Source: Coleofasciculus chthonoplastes F2-STO-03 (GTDB taxonomy: Bacteria > Cyanobacteriota > Cyanobacteriia > Cyanobacteriales > Coleofasciculaceae). From it: a stretch of DNA of 42,046 bases. Positions within the stretch are counted from its first letter, which is position 1. Each line of letters starts with the position of its first letter. This document shows positions 4,998 through 41,398 of this stretch, piece after piece. The DNA is taken from the NCBI GenBank assembly GCA_040222015.1, contig JAVJWO010000139.1:1-42046 (forward strand), read 5' to 3'. The position numbers and the translations under genes were made by a program. The notes under the pieces were generated by a model. The model did not search any database. It saw nothing but the letters and a program-made list of their open reading frames with translations, and was not told the DNA's origin.

Positions 4998-5864
4998 TTA
5001 CTTGCTGCTCCTCAAGAAACCCAGCAAGTTTTGCATAAACGAAGAACTAACCTGAGAGCCATTATCCTCTTTACTGCCGTGATTGGTGCCAGCAGCTACA
5101 GGCTCTAACACATCTTCTGCCATTGCTTTAGAACGAGACGTCGCCGTCATCATTGGGACTTCTTGGACTAAACCCACGCTAATCAGTCGGAATGCCGTTT
5201 GTTGAATTATTTCTATGGGTTGTTTGAGCTGAGTTGCCATTGTGTTCAGAGAAATCGAGCCATTTGATCGCTGCCAAACTTGCCCTTCCACCGAATCCAA
5301 GCGCAGATGACGCTTGCCAATCACTACTCTCGACAGGGCGGAGGTTGGTTCTGGCAGTTTGTTTGCTAATAATACCCAGTCTCTTAACACTCGTAAACCC
5401 ATTAACGTAGCTTCGGTGGCGCTGAGGCTTAAGCCAGTCATTTCCGTCGTGGGCAAAGTCGCTTTAGTATCAAATTTAAATCGAGCCTCTCTCAGCCGAA
5501 ACAAACCACAGACTTGCCGTAGAACTTGAGCGTGGAACAACAGTCTGAGTTGTTCCGGCTGGAGAAACGATTGAGTCTTTAAATATAAACCAATCGGAAT
5601 ATTCGCTGGGCAACGGTTCACCTGCTCTCGCAACACTTCCGGGCTAATCCAGCCTCGTTGTACAATCATGGCGAGCAAGCACTGGTGATCCAAGCGATTG
5701 GTCACAGCGACAATGCGACCTTGATGTAATAGTACATGGCGTACTCGTTTCTCATGATTCTCCGTCTGAAACCGCAAGGTCAGCAATCCGGTTTTGCTGC
5801 CTTGATCCAGAAATTGAAATAGTTCAGGGAGAGAAAACTCCGACAAACAGCTTGTAATTGCCAT
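4998..5864 (-). CDS. DUF4388 (PATAN-like) domain protein
   Basis: LSEFSLPELFQFLDQGSKTGLL N-terminus; both paralogues are 288 aa and share EMTGLS..ATEATLMGLRV. Confidence 0.85.
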   Translation of the reverse strand: MAITSCLSEFSLPELFQFLDQGSKTGLLTLRFQTENHEKRVRHVLLHQGRIVAVTNRLDHQCLLAMIVQRGWISPEVLREQVNRCPANIPIGLYLKTQSFLQPEQLRLLFHAQVLRQVCGLFRLREARFKFDTKATLPTTEMTGLSLSATEATLMGLRVLRDWVLLANKLPEPTSALSRVVIGKRHLRLDSVEGQVWQRSNGSISLNTMATQLKQPIEIIQQTAFRLISVGLVQEVPMMTATSRSKAMAEDVLEPVAAGTNHGSKEDNGSQVSSSFMQNLLGFLRSSK

Positions 5865-6341
5865 TACTTGTTCACTACTTGCTAAAAACTTGTCAAAAAA
5901 TAGGCAAACTCTAGACTTATTGTCTTAGGTTTACAATTCCAATTGAAGAATAATCAATTTTTTGTTACTTATCTTAGATAAATCATAAATATCTTTATGA
6001 TCTATAGTAATCGTGTTATCCTAACCTTGGCAACATCAGTCAGAGCGCCAAAGCAACAGTCAGGACAAGTTTACACTGCCTGATTCAAGATTGGGTGTCG
6101 GTTCTCAGGATTCTTTCAAATTCAAGACTTACCTGTGAGCGGCGCTTTAGCTTACCTTACCGACTTGATAGAGCTATGGGGATTAAATCTCTATCTTGTA
6201 TTTGAGCTTAAACTCAAGCCCACACTGCATTCTGGATAAACTCACTCTTCGGCGAGTGTAAGAAGTGTAAGAGAGTATCCCACCTCGTCACAGCCATGAT
6301 AGAGGTAGGAGAGCAATTGTGGTTTTTGTCGTGGTCATCAA

Positions 6342-6764
6342 TTATTCAGCGACCTGTGATTGAGTGTCATAAGCTCCTGATATTTTCCGGATTGGATCAA
6401 GCGCCGCCTTCAACTCTGGAATCACACGCTTAATTTCCAGTAACAGTACACCTTGTTTCGCCGCTTTGCTGGCTAAAACCAGTAATACCGCATATTCGCC
6501 GCAATTGGTTAAAATGCCGTAGCCGCGATCGCCTTCCACGTAGATGCGATCAAGAAAGCCTCGGGACAATTCTGAGCCAATCCGCTCTCCCAACGACAGC
6601 ATCGCGGCTGACATGGCGGAAACTCGTTCTTCATCCATCTCATTGGGCAAGCTTGAAGCTAAGGGTAGCCCGTCTGGAGACACCAAAGCTGCTCCCTGAA
6701 CCTCACTGGTGCCCGTCACAAAATTTTGCAAAATGTTCTCAATCTTCGCCGTGTTAATGGTCAT
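6342..6764 (-). CDS. Roadblock/LC7 (MglB-like) protein
   Basis: GAALVSPDGLPLAS and ERVSAMSAAMLSLG motifs; start moved to MTINTAK (GAGG RBS upstream; 6770 is also possible). Confidence 0.88.
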   Translation of the reverse strand: MTINTAKIENILQNFVTGTSEVQGAALVSPDGLPLASSLPNEMDEERVSAMSAAMLSLGERIGSELSRGFLDRIYVEGDRGYGILTNCGEYAVLLVLASKAAKQGVLLLEIKRVIPELKAALDPIRKISGAYDTQSQVAE

Positions 6765-7147
6765 TGTCATCATCCTCGATAAGTCCGGGTTTGAGCTGGT
6801 GAGACAGTCAAAGGGTATGAATACCACTAAATCCATCCATTATCCAAGTATCCAACTCTATCTCACAATCGAACTTATCACGGACGTTTTCGGATTAGGA
6901 TTTTAGGTGCTTGGAGACCAAGCCCCTACTCTTATGTTTACCAAACTTTACAAACAGGGGTCGCCCTCCGATCGGTAGAGTTTGCTTAGGCTCTGTGGTG
7001 CGATCGGCATCTTCCTCTATTCAGAGACGATGAAGTTGGTGGGAAGACAGAGACAATGATTGCCAAATGCAGGATAATGGGCAAAGTTTTCACGTTTTGT
7101 TACCTTAGACCTTCCTCCCTGTCAAAGCACTTATTTTTTCATCGGCT

Positions 7148-28650: not shown

Positions 28651-30273
28651 ATGGATACAGCGCTAGTTAGTCCGGAGGCGGTTGCTCTATTGTCGCGGAT
28701 TACTGGGCAAAAGCTCAGTCAACGGCAACTCACTCCTCCCGTAATCTTCTTGGCAGCTTTGGTAACGGTTCTGCTGGGAGTGATGTTTGCCGATGGTACA
28801 GTTACTGATGAAGAGAAGCAACAGCTACAGGCGATCCTTGACAATTTAACTCCTTCAGGAAGCAAACTGCGTAAATTGGCACAACTCCTACTCAAGGGAG
28901 TTAAACAGCATCAGGTTTATACAAAATTAGATCAGTTGACGACACTGACAATCCCGCTTTCAGAAGCAGAAAAGCTATTAGTCATTAGCTTTGGCTATAA
29001 AATGTTAGCCAATACTAGAGGTATAAACTCTCGTGAAACAAGCTACTTGCAATTTCTCACCAACCAGCTAGGGGTTAATTCTAAATATTTAGCCGTTCTT
29101 GAAGCTGGATTCAGCGGACAAGAAAATATTAATCTAGAAGCCTTACAACAATTTCACTCTTTCCTCAACCCAGCTAATTTTCAATCAATTGACCTCTTAT
29201 TTGTTAATGCTGCTAGCTATATCCTAACCGAGTTACCTGCTATACCCCCGTCCCTCGGCAACCAGGCAGTTAACAGTTATTCCCTGGAACTGCAACAATC
29301 TGCTACTAAAATCAAGGAATCCCTTCAAGTCTGTTTAAATGAGCTGGATCAAGCTGAGACTGTTTGGAATACCAAGCCAAAAATTGCGAAGCTAGCTAAA
29401 CAGGAAATTTTGGAAAAACTAGGTGAATGCAGTGGGCTTTATGTCAAAATATGCAATCTAGATGATAAACTCAAAAATCAGACAATCGAGCAGGCAAAAA
29501 TATCTTGGCAAGAATGGTTAGATAAGCTGAAAGAGGATTTAAAAGAGGAGTGGTTTTCTGATGTTAGTCTTGAGGAGCAAAAGGTTGAAGATAAAAATAA
29601 GCTAGCTCGATACTATGCTAAGGAGTTTAGTCAAGACCTGATGGCTGAGGTGGATAACTGGTTTAATGACTTGATCAAGCTAAACATCCAATGTATTGAT
29701 CAAGATTTAGAAATAATTTTGGAACATCTAATTTTATTTAATCAGGAGATAACGCCTGACTGTGGTACTCACATCATAAACGAGATTGAAGAAATTAAGA
29801 AAAATTTATATAGCACTACCGAAGAGCTTCACGATTACTTTGGGGGGAATGAATCAGAATCTGATTTATTAGGGTGGATAGTTGATGGAACTGGCTTTAT
29901 CGTAGGATCGGTGACCAGTGGGATTGCAGGAGTCTTCAAATTTGGTGGTCGAGGAAATGATGCTCCCCAGCCTTCAATCAAGCAAAAAATTTTTGAGAAA
30001 GGTTGGGAAAGATTGGAGCAATCCCAAGATGAAATTTTAAATAAAATCAAAGAGATTCTTGTTTTAGTCATTGACAAAAAAATCCAATCAGCCACCGATA
30101 TTGCTGAACAAGCCGTATCATTCTATGAAGAATTTCTACAGCGGCAAGACAGATACCAGGAAGAAACAGAACAACAGCGTAATGCAGAGAAAGCTTGGAT
30201 ATCCCAACAACGTCAAGAATTGGAAAAAGTGCAGAAGAATATCGAGGTAGTTTTATCAATGCCGTCTTCTTGA
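28651..30273 (+). CDS. TerB-like domain plus dynamin-like helical C-terminus, no visible GTPase domain
   Basis: VMFADGTVTDEEK TerB motif; helical body with a GFIVGSVTSGIAG paddle-like segment; no P-loop seen. Confidence 0.7.
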   Translation: MDTALVSPEAVALLSRITGQKLSQRQLTPPVIFLAALVTVLLGVMFADGTVTDEEKQQLQAILDNLTPSGSKLRKLAQLLLKGVKQHQVYTKLDQLTTLTIPLSEAEKLLVISFGYKMLANTRGINSRETSYLQFLTNQLGVNSKYLAVLEAGFSGQENINLEALQQFHSFLNPANFQSIDLLFVNAASYILTELPAIPPSLGNQAVNSYSLELQQSATKIKESLQVCLNELDQAETVWNTKPKIAKLAKQEILEKLGECSGLYVKICNLDDKLKNQTIEQAKISWQEWLDKLKEDLKEEWFSDVSLEEQKVEDKNKLARYYAKEFSQDLMAEVDNWFNDLIKLNIQCIDQDLEIILEHLILFNQEITPDCGTHIINEIEEIKKNLYSTTEELHDYFGGNESESDLLGWIVDGTGFIVGSVTSGIAGVFKFGGRGNDAPQPSIKQKIFEKGWERLEQSQDEILNKIKEILVLVIDKKIQSATDIAEQAVSFYEEFLQRQDRYQEETEQQRNAEKAWISQQRQELEKVQKNIEVVLSMPSS

Positions 30274-30280
30274 AGAAAAA

Positions 30281-30404
30281 AGTGAGTCGCAATTGCTAGC
30301 ATGGGGACAATTTGTTGCTCTGGTAAAAGGATTGCTCTCAACAGCCGCTTTACAACACCTGCACCAAGCCTGCAAACTAACAATATTGGTGGCATCACTT
30401 TTGA
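30281..30404 (+). pseudogene. 3' relic of the 156-aa cassette gene
   Basis: Near-identical to the last ~125 nt of 24321-24791 (SESQLLAWGQFVAL...) with a 2-nt deletion. Confidence 0.85.
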
Positions 30405-30451
30405 CAAAACACTGAATCTGGCTTAACTAGAGTAAAACAAGACCATTGAAT

Positions 30452-30658
30452 ATGAACACTCAACTCGTTGACTCTCTAATCCAAGTTATTCTCTCTCTCT
30501 CGAAAGAGGAGCGTCATTTACTTGAGCAAAAGCTGTTTTTTGAATCATTAAGTCCTTCAACGGGTGACTTAATGCAAATGGCTCAAAAGGGTGGCTCGTT
30601 CAACTTCCTGTACGATGAACCCGATTTGTATACTCTTGAAGATGGGGAACCCATATAA
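30452..30658 (+). CDS. Putative type II antitoxin
   Basis: Small protein with acidic C-terminus GGSFNFLYDEPDLYT; TAATG overlap with the toxin gene. Confidence 0.75.
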   Translation: MNTQLVDSLIQVILSLSKEERHLLEQKLFFESLSPSTGDLMQMAQKGGSFNFLYDEPDLYTLEDGEPI

Positions 30659-31005
30659 TGTCTGTCAAAAAAGGAGATATTGTTTTAGTTCCCTTCCCTT
30701 TCACAGATTTGAGTACAACAAAACTGCGTCCGGCTGTAGTCTTATGGGTAGATTCTACAGGTGATGACGTAACCCTCTGTTTTATTTCATCTCAAAATTT
30801 AACCCGTCTCAGTCCAGATGAATTTGTTCTAGATGCTTCAGATCCCGAATTTTCCAATACTGGACTAAAGGTTGCTTCTAAAGTTAGGGTGACACGAATC
30901 GTTACTCTTGAACGTCGATTGATTACACGACGTATCGGCAAGTTAGGAGTCAATCAAATTCAGCAATTGAACTCAGTTATGCTTCAAGCCTTTCAACTTT
31001 TGTAA
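30658..31005 (+). CDS. PemK/MazF-family toxin
   Basis: KGDIVLVPFPFTD..K.RPAVV, TGLK..S, IGKL. Confidence 0.9.
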   Translation: MSVKKGDIVLVPFPFTDLSTTKLRPAVVLWVDSTGDDVTLCFISSQNLTRLSPDEFVLDASDPEFSNTGLKVASKVRVTRIVTLERRLITRRIGKLGVNQIQQLNSVMLQAFQLL

Positions 31006-36813: not shown

Positions 36814-37938
36814 ATGTTGGGGTTCATCCGGTCAGATTTGGCTCAATTTACGGCTTACACTCCTAATCCAGGGGGAGATTCGGGTAAGCCAATCCTATCG
36901 TCGCGCGATCGCGTGGATGCGAATGAAAGTCCTGATGATTTGCCCGTTGAATTAAAAGAAAAGCTGACATGGACATATCAACAGGAGATTGAGGCGAACC
37001 GCTATCCCGATGGTTCTCATCAAGCCCTCAAAGACGCGATCGCGCATTATGTGACGGAATCAGCTGATCTAGAAACACCCGTAACCTCTAGCCAAATCTC
37101 AGTCGGTAATGGTTCGGATGAACTGATTCGTTCTCTATTAATTGCCACCTGTTTACGGGGAGAAGGGTCAATTCTCGTCGCCAATCCCACGTTTTCCATG
37201 TACGGGATTCTGGCGCAAACCCTGGGTATTCCTGTGGTAACAGTTGAGCGTTCTCCGGATAACTTTGAGATTAACCTAGATCAAGCCCAACGTGCGATCG
37301 CCCAATCTGAACATCCCCCTATCCGTGTCGTTTTCGTTGTTCACCCCAACTCCCCGACAGGCAATTCTCTCACGGCGTCTGAACTCAAATGGTTGCGAAG
37401 TTTACCTGATCATATTTTGGTGGTGATTGATGAGGCATACTTTGAATTTAGCCAAACCTCTGTGGTTAAAGAATTAGCGCAGCATCCCAACTGGGCAATT
37501 CTGCGAACTTTTTCCAAAGCCTTTCGCTTAGCCGCCCATCGGGTAGGATACTGTATCGCCCACCCCGAATTAATTGCCGCATTAGAAAAAATGCGCTTAC
37601 CTTATAATTTACCCAGCTTTTCCCAAGCCGCCGCCCTTGTCGCCCTGACTCACCGCGATCAACTCTTAGCCGCGATTCCCCAAATTATTGCCGAACGCGA
37701 TAAATTATTAGCAGCATTATCAGAGTATCCCGGCTTACAAGTTTGGTCGAGTTCTGCCAATTTTATTTATATTCGCCCTCGCCAATTGGAACAAAATAGC
37801 TTAATTCAGATTGTTCAACAAATGAAAGCCCAAGGTACAGTAATCCGGAATACAGGTGGCGGATTACGCATTACTGTGGGTTCTCCAGAGGAGAATCAGC
37901 GCACCTTACAGCGATTGCAAACAGTTCTGCTCCATTGA
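36814..37938 (+). CDS. hisC: Histidinol-phosphate aminotransferase
   Basis: [37 protein letters not shown]. Confidence 0.93.
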
Positions 37939-37969
37939 CTTAGTTTTTTATTCTTTAGGCGATTGGATA

Positions 37970-38041
37970 AGTATTAATACTGCTCGAAAAGATCTGGGTA
38001 TTAATACTTGATTGACATTCCTTTGAATAATGAACTATACT
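37970..38041 (+). promoter_or_regulatory. Sigma70-type promoter with tandem palindromic operators
   Basis: GTATTAATAC at 37971-37980 and 37998-38007; TTGACA (38012)-N18-TATACT (38036). Confidence 0.6.
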
Positions 38042-38342
38042 GACTCCATCAAGACAAAGGGAATACAGCTCAGCTAAATCATCTTACAAAATTTATATTC
38101 TGCACAATGATCAGCCAAGCTTTTTAATAATCTAAGAGTCTTGGGTTGACTCAAGATTATTAACTTGCTTTAAATCAGCCATATATGCCTGTGCAAAGTA
38201 TCACTTGATGCAAATGATGCAAATGATCGATGCAGCTAATGCTATTCTCACCCATCCTATCCTGAGGTTGAAAAGCTTTGGGAGCTTGACTGCAAGTATG
38301 ATTTTTTCAGACTAACAGCAGAGTGAGAGTGAGGATACACAA

Positions 38343-38654
38343 ATGATTGACAAAGTAGCCAACAGTTTTGGGGCTAAGATTAACCTACAGCTTCCCCAGT
38401 CGAATCAACACCAAACATTTTTGGTCAAATCGGCTTATCCCCAAGTCAATCTTCCAGCTCTCATCTCCTCCCAGGGAGGGCAAATTTTAATTGATGGCAG
38501 AGTATGGGTAATTGCCCAACTTATGTTCCATCAGGCTATGGAATTACGCAAGCTTCGTGAAATTGCTTTCGTTGGAGGTATCACCTTAGATCCTCAGCGT
38601 TTTACCGCCTTTTCACAGCCTTTAGAAAACTCGCAGGGTTCATCTTATAACTAA
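38343..38654 (+). CDS. Hypothetical protein
   Basis: 103 aa with GAGG RBS; first gene of a co-directional cluster. Confidence 0.6.
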   Translation: MIDKVANSFGAKINLQLPQSNQHQTFLVKSAYPQVNLPALISSQGGQILIDGRVWVIAQLMFHQAMELRKLREIAFVGGITLDPQRFTAFSQPLENSQGSSYN

Positions 38655-38693
38655 GGTCAAACTAACATTCTAGTTTTAGAAGAGGAATAAATC

Positions 38694-39215
38694 ATGCCCA
38701 GCGTTGGACAAGAACTTCTCGATGTGCCACTTCCCGAAATGGTAGCCAAGCTAGCAATGGGTATTGCCACCGCCCAAGCTGCCTTAGACGAGAATTCGGT
38801 TAACACGGCACAGTTACTGGCAGAAACAGAAGTTCCGGTTGTGTTCGGTGTTAGTCAGATTATTGCTGAGGATGGCACAGTCAGCTTTACCCAATCACCT
38901 CCTATCGATGTCTCACTTTTACAAATTGGTCTATTGCCGACATTTTACCAGTTTTCTGAAGCCACTATTGAGGTTTCAATGGACATTAAAACGACAACCA
39001 GTCGGCAGACTAATGTTAACGTATCCGCCAAGGCAAAAGTTGGCTTTGCCTTATGGAGTTCATCGGTAAGAGTTGATGTCTCTCATAACCGCAAATTTGG
39101 CAAGGAAGTGCAGGGGACAAGTCGCTTGTTTACTCGCCTCGCTCCCGTCCCCCCACCCGAACGGATTGCACCTATATTGACAGTGGTAGATAATCGTCCT
39201 GATGGAGGTGCATAA
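38694..39215 (+). CDS. DUF2589-like protein with amphipathic beta-hairpin
   Basis: GIATAQAALD, SLLQIGLLPTFYQFSEATIEV, LAPVPPP; GAGG RBS. Confidence 0.75.
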   Translation: MPSVGQELLDVPLPEMVAKLAMGIATAQAALDENSVNTAQLLAETEVPVVFGVSQIIAEDGTVSFTQSPPIDVSLLQIGLLPTFYQFSEATIEVSMDIKTTTSRQTNVNVSAKAKVGFALWSSSVRVDVSHNRKFGKEVQGTSRLFTRLAPVPPPERIAPILTVVDNRPDGGA

Positions 39216-39748
39216 TGGCATTCGATCTCACACCCAAAGATCCAAATGAGCCAATTCAGGAACTGGCGGGTGCGTCATTAGCGGAAGTCCTGACTCAACT
39301 TGCAGAAGCAATTGCCGAAGGACAGGCGAGGCTTGATCTATCATCCGCCCAAGTTGTTCAGGAGTTAGCACAAACTCAAGTTGATATTGTCCCCAGTATT
39401 CGGCAGATTATCCGAGAAGATGGGACGGTAGAATTTCAACAAGCTGAACCTGTCAGGGTGAGCTTACTTGATTTGGGCATATTGCCGACGTTCCTTGCCT
39501 TTTCTGAAGCAACAGCAGAGGTAGTCATGGATCTGAAAGTGGTGGAGAATGTCACTCAATCTGCTGGCAATACCAACAAACGCAAGTCTCTGTTTGCGGC
39601 GACTCAATCCCTAAGAACAGAACGACGTTTGAATCGGGACGTTAGCGTACACACAAAATTGACGGCTAAATTAGTGCCAGTACCCGTACCCGCTCGTTTA
39701 CAACCGATAATCACCGTGGAAGATCAACGCGAGGGAGGGGGTGTCTGA
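39215..39748 (+). CDS. Paralogue of 38694-39215
   Basis: AIAEGQARLD, QIIREDGTV, SLLDLGILPTF..FSEAT.EV, LVPVPVP; TAATG coupling. Confidence 0.78.
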   Translation: MAFDLTPKDPNEPIQELAGASLAEVLTQLAEAIAEGQARLDLSSAQVVQELAQTQVDIVPSIRQIIREDGTVEFQQAEPVRVSLLDLGILPTFLAFSEATAEVVMDLKVVENVTQSAGNTNKRKSLFAATQSLRTERRLNRDVSVHTKLTAKLVPVPVPARLQPIITVEDQREGGGV

Positions 39749-40239
39749 TGGCGAACGATAAGATGCGTATTGATGCCTTTCTTAGTGAGTTCGGCAAGTC
39801 GATGATCCAAGCTCAAGCTCAGATCAATGCTGAGGTACTGGAGCATCCTGTTGGTTTTGAAGGGTTACAAACAGGTATCGCCATCAGCGAGACGGAGATT
39901 GACTTAAAAATGGTCTTCGACGAAGACAGTTCTGGAGTTAATATTCGACCTGTGAGTGCGGGAGAGGCAAGACTAGCGGATCTTAATCCTGGTGTTCTAT
40001 CTGGGTTACGCGCTCGCTTGGTGGCAGTCCCTAATGAGGAAATCCGTCCACCCGTGCGGAAACCGTCAGACATTCGCGAGCAGGTTCTTTCTCGTCCCGA
40101 TATCACTCGCTTGCAGGACGTCTTTGGCGAACTGCAAGTCGAAACCACCTACGTCGGTGCGGCACGACGGTGGATTGTAGATGTGAAGGAACTCAGAGGT
40201 CAAACCCTTCGCAGTATCCAGATTTCCGATAGTGAATAG
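39748..40239 (+). CDS. Distant DUF2589/Trypco-like protein
   Basis: SMIQAQAQIN helix, AISETEIDLKM strand, LSGLRARLVAVP; TGATG coupling. Confidence 0.7.
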   Translation: MANDKMRIDAFLSEFGKSMIQAQAQINAEVLEHPVGFEGLQTGIAISETEIDLKMVFDEDSSGVNIRPVSAGEARLADLNPGVLSGLRARLVAVPNEEIRPPVRKPSDIREQVLSRPDITRLQDVFGELQVETTYVGAARRWIVDVKELRGQTLRSIQISDSE

Positions 40240-40379
40240 TCATTAGCTCAGTTGAGCTATACAAATCTCCAGAATTGGGGTACAATTATAAGCTTTGGTG
40301 TTTTGTTCCTACTTAGAGTTTGTACCCTCATTCTTCCATTGAAAAGTATATTAACATAAATTGAGAGTAGTACAAAAGT

Positions 40380-40898
40380 ATGGTTGAAGCACTAACGATC
40401 AAGGAGGCTCAACAGCAAATCGAGGGGTTAATCAAAGAAAATCGGCTATCCAGTGAAACCATCGAAGCTCTTGAGAAAGAGATTAATCTATTTAAACAGA
40501 AAACCCAAGAGGCGGTTCAAGCTCAGCAAAAAGCCGAGACAGAAATAAAGGTAGCTCAGCAACAAATACAGGATCTACAGCCTCAAGTTGCTCAGTTAAA
40601 AGAACTTAATACTCAGCTTCAATCTCAAGTTCAACGCTTGTCTGCACAGGTAAAAGAAACTCCACTACAACCCCTGACTCCAGAGGAAGGTTCAGCTCTG
40701 CTTGACCGAACGTTCCAAGCCTTCCGTGGCATAAAAAATTTGAGAGTGGTAGACGCTGACATCACACTCAAGCTAGCGACTGGCAAACTCGGAGATCAGT
40801 CTGTTTTAATTTTTCCACAACCGGGTTCTGTTGATTCTTCAACTCTCCATGAAATAAAGTTTAAGCTCCGCAGTGACGATTCACTGAGTCAACCCTGA
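40380..40898 (+). CDS. Coiled-coil protein with Trypco-like C-terminal domain
   Basis: ~95-aa Q/E/K heptad region, then helix, LRVVDADITLKL and LHEIKFKL. Confidence 0.7.
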   Translation: MVEALTIKEAQQQIEGLIKENRLSSETIEALEKEINLFKQKTQEAVQAQQKAETEIKVAQQQIQDLQPQVAQLKELNTQLQSQVQRLSAQVKETPLQPLTPEEGSALLDRTFQAFRGIKNLRVVDADITLKLATGKLGDQSVLIFPQPGSVDSSTLHEIKFKLRSDDSLSQP

Positions 40899-40946
40899 GC
40901 TTGATATATAGCAAAAGGCTTCAGGGCATAAGGTTTATTACTGTGA

Positions 40947-40974
40947 TAGAGACGTTCCGACGGAACGTCTCTAC
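40947..40974. repeat. GTAG REP palindrome
   Basis: TAGAGACGTTCCG-A-CGGAACGTCTCTAC. Confidence 0.85.
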
Positions 40975-40981
40975 GAAATTC

Positions 40982-41398
40982 TTATCTCAAAGGACAGGTA
41001 ATTTGCTCGGATTCTTTCTCAAGCTGACGCACTAAGTCTTGATCTCCTTTTGCCCTCGCGACGTCTAAGCGACGTTCCAAGGACTGACAGATATTTTCCA
41101 GATGAGTAATGCTGGTTTGCTGAAAGGCTTTTTGGCGCGAATTCTTCAGAAACCAAGAACGAGTTCCGGCTATCGTCATCGGTGTCTCGACTGGCGTAGA
41201 TTTGACAACACGGGGTTTTCCTGTGTGATATCCAGCGCCTCGCCACTTCAAATCATGGGTAGGTGGGGGTTCGGGAATATGTCTGAGATAATGAAATCGC
41301 CAATTTTGACCCCGATAGGTGCCGCCAATCTCGCCTTCGCTTACGTCTAATGTGGATGGTGTTTCATCGTAATGAACACCCCGATAACAACGTTTCAT
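40982..41398 (-). CDS. DUF4278 protein with PirA-like C-terminal domain
   Basis: Start moved to MKRCYRGVHY (AAGGAG RBS); YRG/WRG motifs; HLENICQSLERRLDVARAKGDQDLVRQLEKE. Confidence 0.82.
   Translation of the reverse strand: MKRCYRGVHYDETPSTLDVSEGEIGGTYRGQNWRFHYLRHIPEPPPTHDLKWRGAGYHTGKPRVVKSTPVETPMTIAGTRSWFLKNSRQKAFQQTSITHLENICQSLERRLDVARAKGDQDLVRQLEKESEQITCPLR

Follow-up and report, generated by a model that had tools for sequence, protein, structure and literature searches.

A conserved five-gene cassette related to DUF2589 and Pepco proteins in Coleofasciculus chthonoplastes: a candidate heteromeric beta-barrel system

The cassette

The contig JAVJWO010000139.1 of Coleofasciculus chthonoplastes F2-STO-03 (assembly GCA_040222015.1), analysed here over positions 1 to 42,046 (the window, 42,046 nucleotides), contains a cassette of five genes denoted g0 to g4 (Table 1). 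The cassette is real, conserved and self-contained, being present in some strains and absent from others. Sequence comparisons suggest that it is an undescribed member of the DUF2589/Pepco superfamily, and its possible function is considered below on the same basis.

An earlier annotation (the original prediction) described the locus as five co-directional genes, the middle three of which are translationally coupled. Indeed, all five open reading frames (ORFs) lie on the forward strand and encode proteins of 103, 173, 177, 163 and 172 amino acids (aa), respectively; the g1/g2 junction reads TAATG and the g2/g3 junction reads TGATG, while the outer gaps are 39 nucleotides (nt) between g0 and g1 and 140 nt between g3 and g4. 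The proposed end-to-end alignment of g1 and g2 is reproduced (44% identity over 167 aa, E 3e-41) with all four quoted motifs, as are the long coiled coil of g4, spanning approximately residues 7–95, and the lack of transmembrane helices in the five proteins, where the maximal Kyte–Doolittle value of any 19-residue segment is 1.37. The common layout ascribed to g3 and the C-terminus of g4 is correct in that they share a module recognisable via intermediate families; however, the two are not aligned directly by BLASTP, and the g4 motif is D.DI.LK, not E.EI.LK.

All subunits are leaderless, that is, have no signal peptide. Pfam, NCBIfam and PADLOC yield only coiled-coil noise on the five proteins and no family name, and all five orthologs on a Sphaerotilus plasmid are labelled hypothetical in RefSeq. 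The cassette is single-copy in the genome. Four promoter-like sites were found, with 4.5 expected by chance, and the top match, upstream of g0, is a candidate promoter. RNA contigs from runs X1 and X7 (four of 24 runs were compared) extend over the cassette; since they run through intergenic DNA as well and include both strands, this coverage does not prove transcription of the cassette. In run X10, one low-depth contig skips 857 nt (window positions 39071-39929) with most of g2 gone; this may be a deletion variant or a misassembly.

Table 1. Genes of the cassette and associated features of the window
Feature	Position	Strand	Description
g0	38343..38654	+	Stand-alone; predicted subtilase-propeptide (inhibitor I9-like) ferredoxin fold; conserved G[GP]V..D..RF tail
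g1	38694..39215	+	DUF2589-like, best-conserved subunit; N-terminal helix and long beta-hairpin; predicted membrane-inserting stave
g2	39215..39748	+	g1 paralogue (44%) with a polar hairpin tip; translational coupling with both g1 and g3
g3	39748..40239	+	Pepco/Trypco2-like module (~1-98) and conserved C-terminal alpha/beta domain
g4	40380..40898	+	Coiled coil (~7-95) and C-terminal copy of the module
Promoter-like site, sigma-70 type (TTGACA-18-TATACT, 11/12)	38012..38041	+	Best match; within the variable segment, ~300 nt before g0
Variable segment holding the whole cassette	37918..40981		Between hisC-like aminotransferase gene and DUF4278 gene

Conservation and host range

The search for g1 relatives retained 850 of 972 candidates; species genomes contributed 103 loci, of which the 80 best were examined. 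Conservation of the neighbourhood across phyla, proposed earlier as a check, is observed: the five-gene synteny is kept in 54 of the 59 loci with enough flanking sequence. By gene, g0 is present in 77 of the 80 loci, a gene in the g3 position in 75, and one in the g4 position in 66. Three of the five incomplete loci lack g4 by the thresholds used; in the one scanned, L042, g3 is fused to PASTA and DUF4332 domains. The gene order is mostly preserved, with the position of g0 shifting. The hosts belong to 12 bacterial phylum-level groups and the haloarchaea, 13 groups in all. The host tree was a quick one with a weak backbone, and therefore no donor is claimed.

The five genes differ strongly in conservation. 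The median identity to the window's proteins, over the same set of loci, is 70% for g1, 45% for g2, 27% for g0, 27% for g3 and 24% for the C-terminal module of g4 (g4C). The identity of g1 is 60–88% across phyla and domains and 97–100% in the nearest loci. The contrast between 70% for g1 and 24–27% for g0, g3 and g4C points to selection on a structural subunit with many interfaces rather than to recent transfer.

At the same time, the distribution is patchy. Two of 301 cyanobacterial genomes have the cassette, this one and a distant variant, and it is found in three of eight other genomes of the genus. The wider profile is matched by 17 of 251 genomes from the phylum of the haloarchaeal host, and in several archaeal genomes the cassette occupies one shared site among housekeeping genes. 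As regards phage origin, no match was found among 50,697 phage records or in viral contigs; the plasmid records gave one match, in Sphaerotilus.

One module in four subunits

The resemblance to DUF2589 and the trypsin-co-occurring (Trypco) domains, noted in the original prediction, holds at the level of distant homology. The ESM Atlas relates g1 to DUF2589 with the score 0.96 (225 of 256 shared features, 29 of 30 hits). Pfam gives no DUF2589 match for g1 or g2 of the window even when E values up to 1 are allowed, and in g2 relatives DUF2589 is weakly matched in seven of 54 (best E 2.7e-4). With the E limit set at 0.1, Trypco2 is weakly matched by nine of the 42 g3 relatives, the best at E 0.0015, and not by the window's g3; one more weak match comes from the set collected with the g2 profile.

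The claim that the four subunits g1–g4 have one fold is borne out by a chain of intermediate families, from which a shared ancestral helix-plus-strands module can be traced with hhalign. The intermediate families were obtained in a search with the g2 profile (986 representatives), and the second set, seeded by one of these, P0180, comprised the best 80 of 95 metagenome loci. The links are g1 to the adapter, a paralogue of about 130 aa described below (99.7%), the adapter to the N-terminal part of g3 (92.4%), the latter to the domain of the coiled-coil protein (96.7%), and this domain to g4C (91.6%). In the controls, reversed profiles gave at most 2%, and the maxima of 15 block shuffles were 26.6, 8.3, 5.9 and 3.8%, respectively. 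The direct match of g3 and g4 is weak (18–24%), and that of g2 and g3 was dropped, as its 28.8% is no better than the values of up to 33.6% produced by its own shuffles; therefore, only the intermediate chain counts. The g0 protein stands apart, scoring below 1% against all module profiles. Searches of PDB sequences with the g2, g3, g4C and wide-family profiles yielded nothing under E 0.19.

The accessory parts of g3 and g4 are variable. The C-terminal alpha/beta domain of g3 is replaced in some relatives by PASTA and DUF4332/HhH domains. A PepSY-like reading of this domain, suggested by a motif, was abandoned after the profile and PDB searches gave no support. The coiled coil of g4 varies greatly in length, the proteins having 168–537 aa in bacterial loci, and in archaeal and some other g4 relatives the protein is extended by PASTA repeats and HhH. 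Two coiled-coil subunits, one of them of 1324 aa, are encoded in one archaeal genome (L184:8550-12524 and 5279-6874).

The amphipathic hairpin of g1

The g1 model is of low confidence, with the mean predicted local distance difference test (pLDDT) score of 59.5. A long helix at the N-terminus is accompanied by a small hairpin and by two paired strands of approximately 33 residues each (84–118 and 121–152). In an alignment of 92 rows, a few of them archaeal g2, positions 108–118 and 125–129 of the distal hairpin (approximately residues 106–131) alternate between hydrophobic (mean hydropathy from +1.5 to +4.2) and polar or charged residues. Alternating hydropathy of this kind is the membrane-spanning stave pattern of beta-pore-forming proteins. 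The tip of the g1 hairpin is GF-x-x-W, whereas the g2 tip is polar. The C-termini of both g1 and g2 contain a conserved PVP-P motif and a predicted strand.

Judging by the aligned sequences, g1 is the only subunit whose amphipathic hairpin is of sufficient length to span a membrane, and this favours a pore over a fibre; the monomer model of g1 is compatible with a barrel stave. The original prediction, which allowed for a pore, tube or fibre, was right about the family likeness, the shared module and the synteny, but it missed the amphipathic hairpin and left out the propeptide-like g0.

Foldseek finds no PDB match to the g1 model at E 0.001 or better. An unnamed viral protein of 178 aa (A0A516MP19 in BFVD) matches the model over its full length (E 5e-3, template modelling (TM) score 0.49), and hence the g1 fold may be carried by some phages.

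The propeptide-like protein g0

The AlphaFold2 model of g0 has pLDDT 76.8, and a propeptide-type ferredoxin fold is predicted, best matching subtilisin propeptides. With VIA-align, the closest structures are pro-subtilisin E (Z 9.7, root-mean-square deviation 1.6, 60 aligned residues), a subtilisin propeptide (Z 9.2) and POIA1 (Z 7.4); among 48,161 chains only two rows reach Z of at least 8, both being subtilisin propeptides. The ESM Atlas assigns the CspB prodomain with the score 0.94. At the sequence level the relationship is faint: a search of the PDB yields one propeptide, that of Tk-subtilisin, at E 0.91, and Pfam I9 matches none of 68 g0 members. There are 11 Peptidase_S8 matches in the genome, none on the cassette contig. 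No longer fusions of g0 were seen among 7996 candidates, which is weak evidence. In a haloarchaeal g0 (L078:9470-9865) the tail resembles, by eye, the C-terminal strand of g1, and given this likeness g0 might mimic or cap the edge of g1.

Fused domains and linked enzymes in the wider family

In 57 of 80 loci of the wider family, the core is made up of a g1-like protein, the 130-aa adapter and a coiled-coil protein bearing the module at one end. A g0-like gene is present in 11 of the 80 loci and in ten of 12 archaeal regions. The neighbour scan covered 74 of the 116 listed neighbour or long-subunit ORFs and eight others.

PASTA, HhH/DUF4332, ricin-B lectin and L7/L12-like domains are carried by the adapter in some lineages and by the coiled-coil subunit in others, as expected if the subunits form one complex, while g1-like proteins carry fused Ig-like, LamG and OmpA domains. 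Archaea lack peptidoglycan; PASTA is present on archaeal subunits as well. None of the 16 long fusions has a protease label in Pfam. The PADLOC match of one relative to PD-T4-6 covers only its PASTA region.

Among the 80 loci, 28 have a co-directional gene inside the cassette or at most 400 nt downstream, and in nine of these it encodes a leaderless, tightly linked enzyme. These nine candidate payloads are ribosome-inactivating-protein (RIP)-like in two loci, phospholipase-C-like in three, amidases in two and M15 peptidases in two. Four of the nine labels are above the Pfam cut-off; the two RIP-like proteins are one above and one just below it, and three were labelled by family membership only. 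The remaining 19 linked genes are housekeeping, have unknown function, or are single cases such as a TIR protein. In the G196 variant, a lytic transglycosylase gene stands between the g1-like and adapter genes.

The RIP-like genes follow the cassettes at L103:1957-2814 and L105:10626-11321, and in L103 the adapter carries a ricin-B lectin domain, forming an AB-toxin-like arrangement. Larger operons of seven to nine genes with several paralogues, TPR proteins, HhH repeats and L7/L12-like domains are found in L131:6394-15146, L121:3521-8845, L133 and L141.

Comparison with known systems

The closest characterised relative is Pepco (PF19631, comprising Trypco1 and Trypco2). According to Evans et al. 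(bioRxiv 10.1101/2025.11.14.688446), it forms SDS-resistant 9-11-mer beta-barrels with a hydrophobic outside that kill after cleavage by a linked protease. The similarity consists in a small leaderless helix-plus-strand module, the weak Trypco2 matches of g3 relatives and the amphipathic strands of g1. On the other hand, Pepco is a homo-oligomer encoded by a single gene next to a sensor protease of the trypsin or caspase type, whereas the cassette has four diverged subunits, one of them with a coiled coil, a propeptide-like protein and no linked protease. Pepco is activated when the disordered C-terminal tail that follows a conserved Ile is removed; the C-termini of g1 and g2, with their PVP-P motif and predicted strand, are not obviously disordered. 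Pfam and NCBIfam reveal no protease among the five cassette genes. The flank scan of the window's clade covered 140 of 155 mechanically picked ORFs from 39 loci, together with three more large ORFs; single peptidases (S8, M3, M13, S41) are scattered among the 140, none of them recurring and none trypsin- or caspase-like. This rules out a Pepco–protease defence module.

DUF2589 (PF11655) is known from tandem clusters such as AF0414–AF0417 of Archaeoglobus fulgidus (PMC3949148). Such clusters likewise consist of paralogues with unknown function, and g1 and g2 are their distant relatives; at that, the window's proteins have no Pfam DUF2589 match, and the partners g0, g3 and g4 seem to mark a distinct cassette. 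The best structural matches and ESM features of g0 come from the I9 family of subtilisin propeptides and inhibitors (POIA1; the CspB prodomain, PF18425), but g0 stands alone, with no adjacent subtilase and with additional N- and C-terminal elements. Long-stem beta-pore-forming toxins (aerolysin, lysenin, PA-type translocases) share the long amphipathic hairpin and fill many weak Foldseek rows; none of these matches is significant (best E 0.26, TM at most 0.19), and the likeness is generic to long hairpins.

Two other associations were considered. An accessory of extracellular contractile injection systems was rejected, as Pvc16_N is present in only four of 18 carrier genomes and there are no sheath or tube genes in the flanks. 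A link to gas vesicles, suggested by the hosts, yielded PF00741 in none of the 18 carriers, and no control gave a signal either. We found no description of the cassette in the full-text literature, including the accessible texts of PMC7159879 and 10.64898/2026.01.04.697583; the search covered main texts, and most subscription journals and the supplements lay outside it.

The genomic slot and neighbouring genes

In genomes G302 and G307 the same flanking genes enclose about 1 kb of unrelated DNA in place of the cassette. In run X1, a joint leads from 37917 to 40982, skipping the segment, with only 30 letters on its short side. No terminal repeats bounding the variable segment were found. A perfect 13-bp inverted repeat just after g4 (window 40947-40973) belongs to a short repeated element that occurs many times in related genomes. 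The flanking genes showed no recurrence beyond close kin in the scanned flanks.

In the slot without the cassette, G307 (L174:2693-3460) has a 141-aa ORF preceded by a 75-aa ORF; in G302 (L172:643-1311) and in L173 the 141-aa ORF is the end of a 222-aa frame. We presume that the 141-aa and 75-aa ORFs resemble an orphan toxin tip with its immunity protein; they have no Pfam or PADLOC match. In G303 and G306 (L180:709-1234, L181:2431-2908) the DUF4278 gene adjoins what we take to be a YefM/YoeB-like toxin–antitoxin pair; therefore the site seems to accept differing conflict modules. In RNA runs X7 and X10 the deepest contig is that of the DUF4278 gene itself (window 40982-41398, reverse strand), although contigs cannot rank expression. 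Approximately 8 kb upstream, the region 28651-31005 of the window contains a 540-aa TerB-like protein (weak Pfam match) and a small gene pair that is presumably of the MazF/PemK toxin–antitoxin type.

Possible function and alternatives

Whatever the target, a membrane-inserting g1 barrel of some kind probably exists. As for its use, our tentative preference, held at somewhat less than an even chance, is for a heteromeric beta-barrel machine that pierces the envelope and acts outward in microbial conflict, restrained by the propeptide-like g0. In such a machine, g1 would form a ring like the 9-11-mer Pepco barrel, the hairpin tips crossing the membrane; g2, g3 and g4, having no hydrophobic tip, would make up the part outside the membrane and bear the coiled-coil stalk, to which the relatives would add swappable wall- or glycan-binding domains (PASTA, ricin-B, LamG, OmpA). 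The producer would be protected by g0, which might either block a subtilase encoded elsewhere that arms the barrel, or bind a subunit as a chaperone or cap. Lacking signal peptides, the particle would have to exit through lysis or along a non-Sec route. The targets would be neighbouring cells, reached by a bare pore in this strain and by a leaderless enzyme payload in some relatives. A broader version, which we consider unlikely as a whole, is a cross-domain delivery machine: a minimal heteromeric beta-barrel injector of three to five genes with a conserved piercing subunit, swappable target-binding subunits, equally swappable leaderless enzyme payloads and a stand-alone propeptide guard, used by both archaea and bacteria against neighbours.

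In favour of the outward-acting machine are the five-gene synteny and the strong conservation of g1, the alternating hydropathy and aromatic tip of its hairpin, the homology chain to Trypco2-like modules, the barrel formation and killing activity of Pepco, the PASTA and HhH domains found on different subunits in different lineages, PASTA on archaeal subunits, the leaderless enzymes linked to wider-family loci, and the strain-variable slot.

Several observations weigh against outward action. Neither a signal peptide nor a linked export gene is present, the window's own subunits have no targeting domain, and Pfam matches to wall hydrolase or toxin families are absent from all 140 mechanically picked flanking ORFs of the window's clade. 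Confidence in the g1 model is lowest, with pLDDT below 50, precisely over the hairpin tip (residues 100–141), and a toxin would not usually be conserved as strongly as g1 is. The nine payload loci represent only four families, all from one search seed, and the HhH/DUF4332 fusions are left unexplained. Finally, ferredoxin folds are common, unrelated proteins reaching Z 7.4 against the g0 model, and the g0 profile fails to pick up the subtilase prodomains encoded in the same genome.

The alternative that survives best, although we think it somewhat unlikely, is that the same barrel opens the producer's own membrane, in abortive-infection defence or controlled lysis. Here g0 would be a bait or guard, the pore being freed when a phage or stress protease binds or cleaves g0, and the wall hydrolases would be endolysin-like. 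Pepco, the nearest characterised relative, is itself a suicide pore; the leaderless, and hence cytoplasmic, subunits and the patchy presence of the cassette fit this explanation, as do the TPR and TIR genes in or beside some wider-family operons and the resemblance of a pore combined with an amidase, M15 peptidase or soluble lytic transglycosylase to a lysis cassette. However, PADLOC gave only noise, no sensor or protease recurs among the scanned flanking ORFs, and the PASTA domains of archaeal subunits and the pairing of ricin-B with a RIP-like protein point outward.

Rather unlikely is a non-lethal structural assembly, that is, a tube, fibre, membrane scaffold or conduit of stacked rings with g0 as the assembly chaperone; given the HhH domains, a conduit could serve DNA. 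The conservation of g1 at 60–88% is typical of structural polymers, the window's clade has no payload, the HhH/DUF4332 fusions are recurrent, and the shared site among housekeeping genes in several archaeal genomes is of the same tenor. This is opposed by the confinement of the amphipathic hairpin to g1, the toxin-like and wall-lytic neighbours in relatives, and the absence of the cassette from close kin. It is quite improbable that the paralogues share no complex, the operon bundling separate homo-oligomers as parallel effectors: Pepco is a homo-oligomer, and the direct g1–g3 and g1–g4 profile similarity is low, but the gene set is fixed across 13 phylum-level groups, the middle genes are translationally coupled, and accessory domains move between subunits.

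Significance

Three pieces that lacked an explanation, namely DUF2589, the barrel module of Pepco/Trypco and a propeptide fold standing alone, come together in this cassette, and its carriers include cultured bacteria and archaea, among them Halorubrum, Rhodoferax and Sphaerotilus, so that direct testing is possible. If the barrel is a suicide pore, it would reverse the logic of Pepco, an inhibitor being encoded in place of the protease. If it is an outward pore or injector, it would be a very small conflict machine common to both domains, and would be relevant to the question, posed in PMC12352652, of how bacteria are attacked by archaea.

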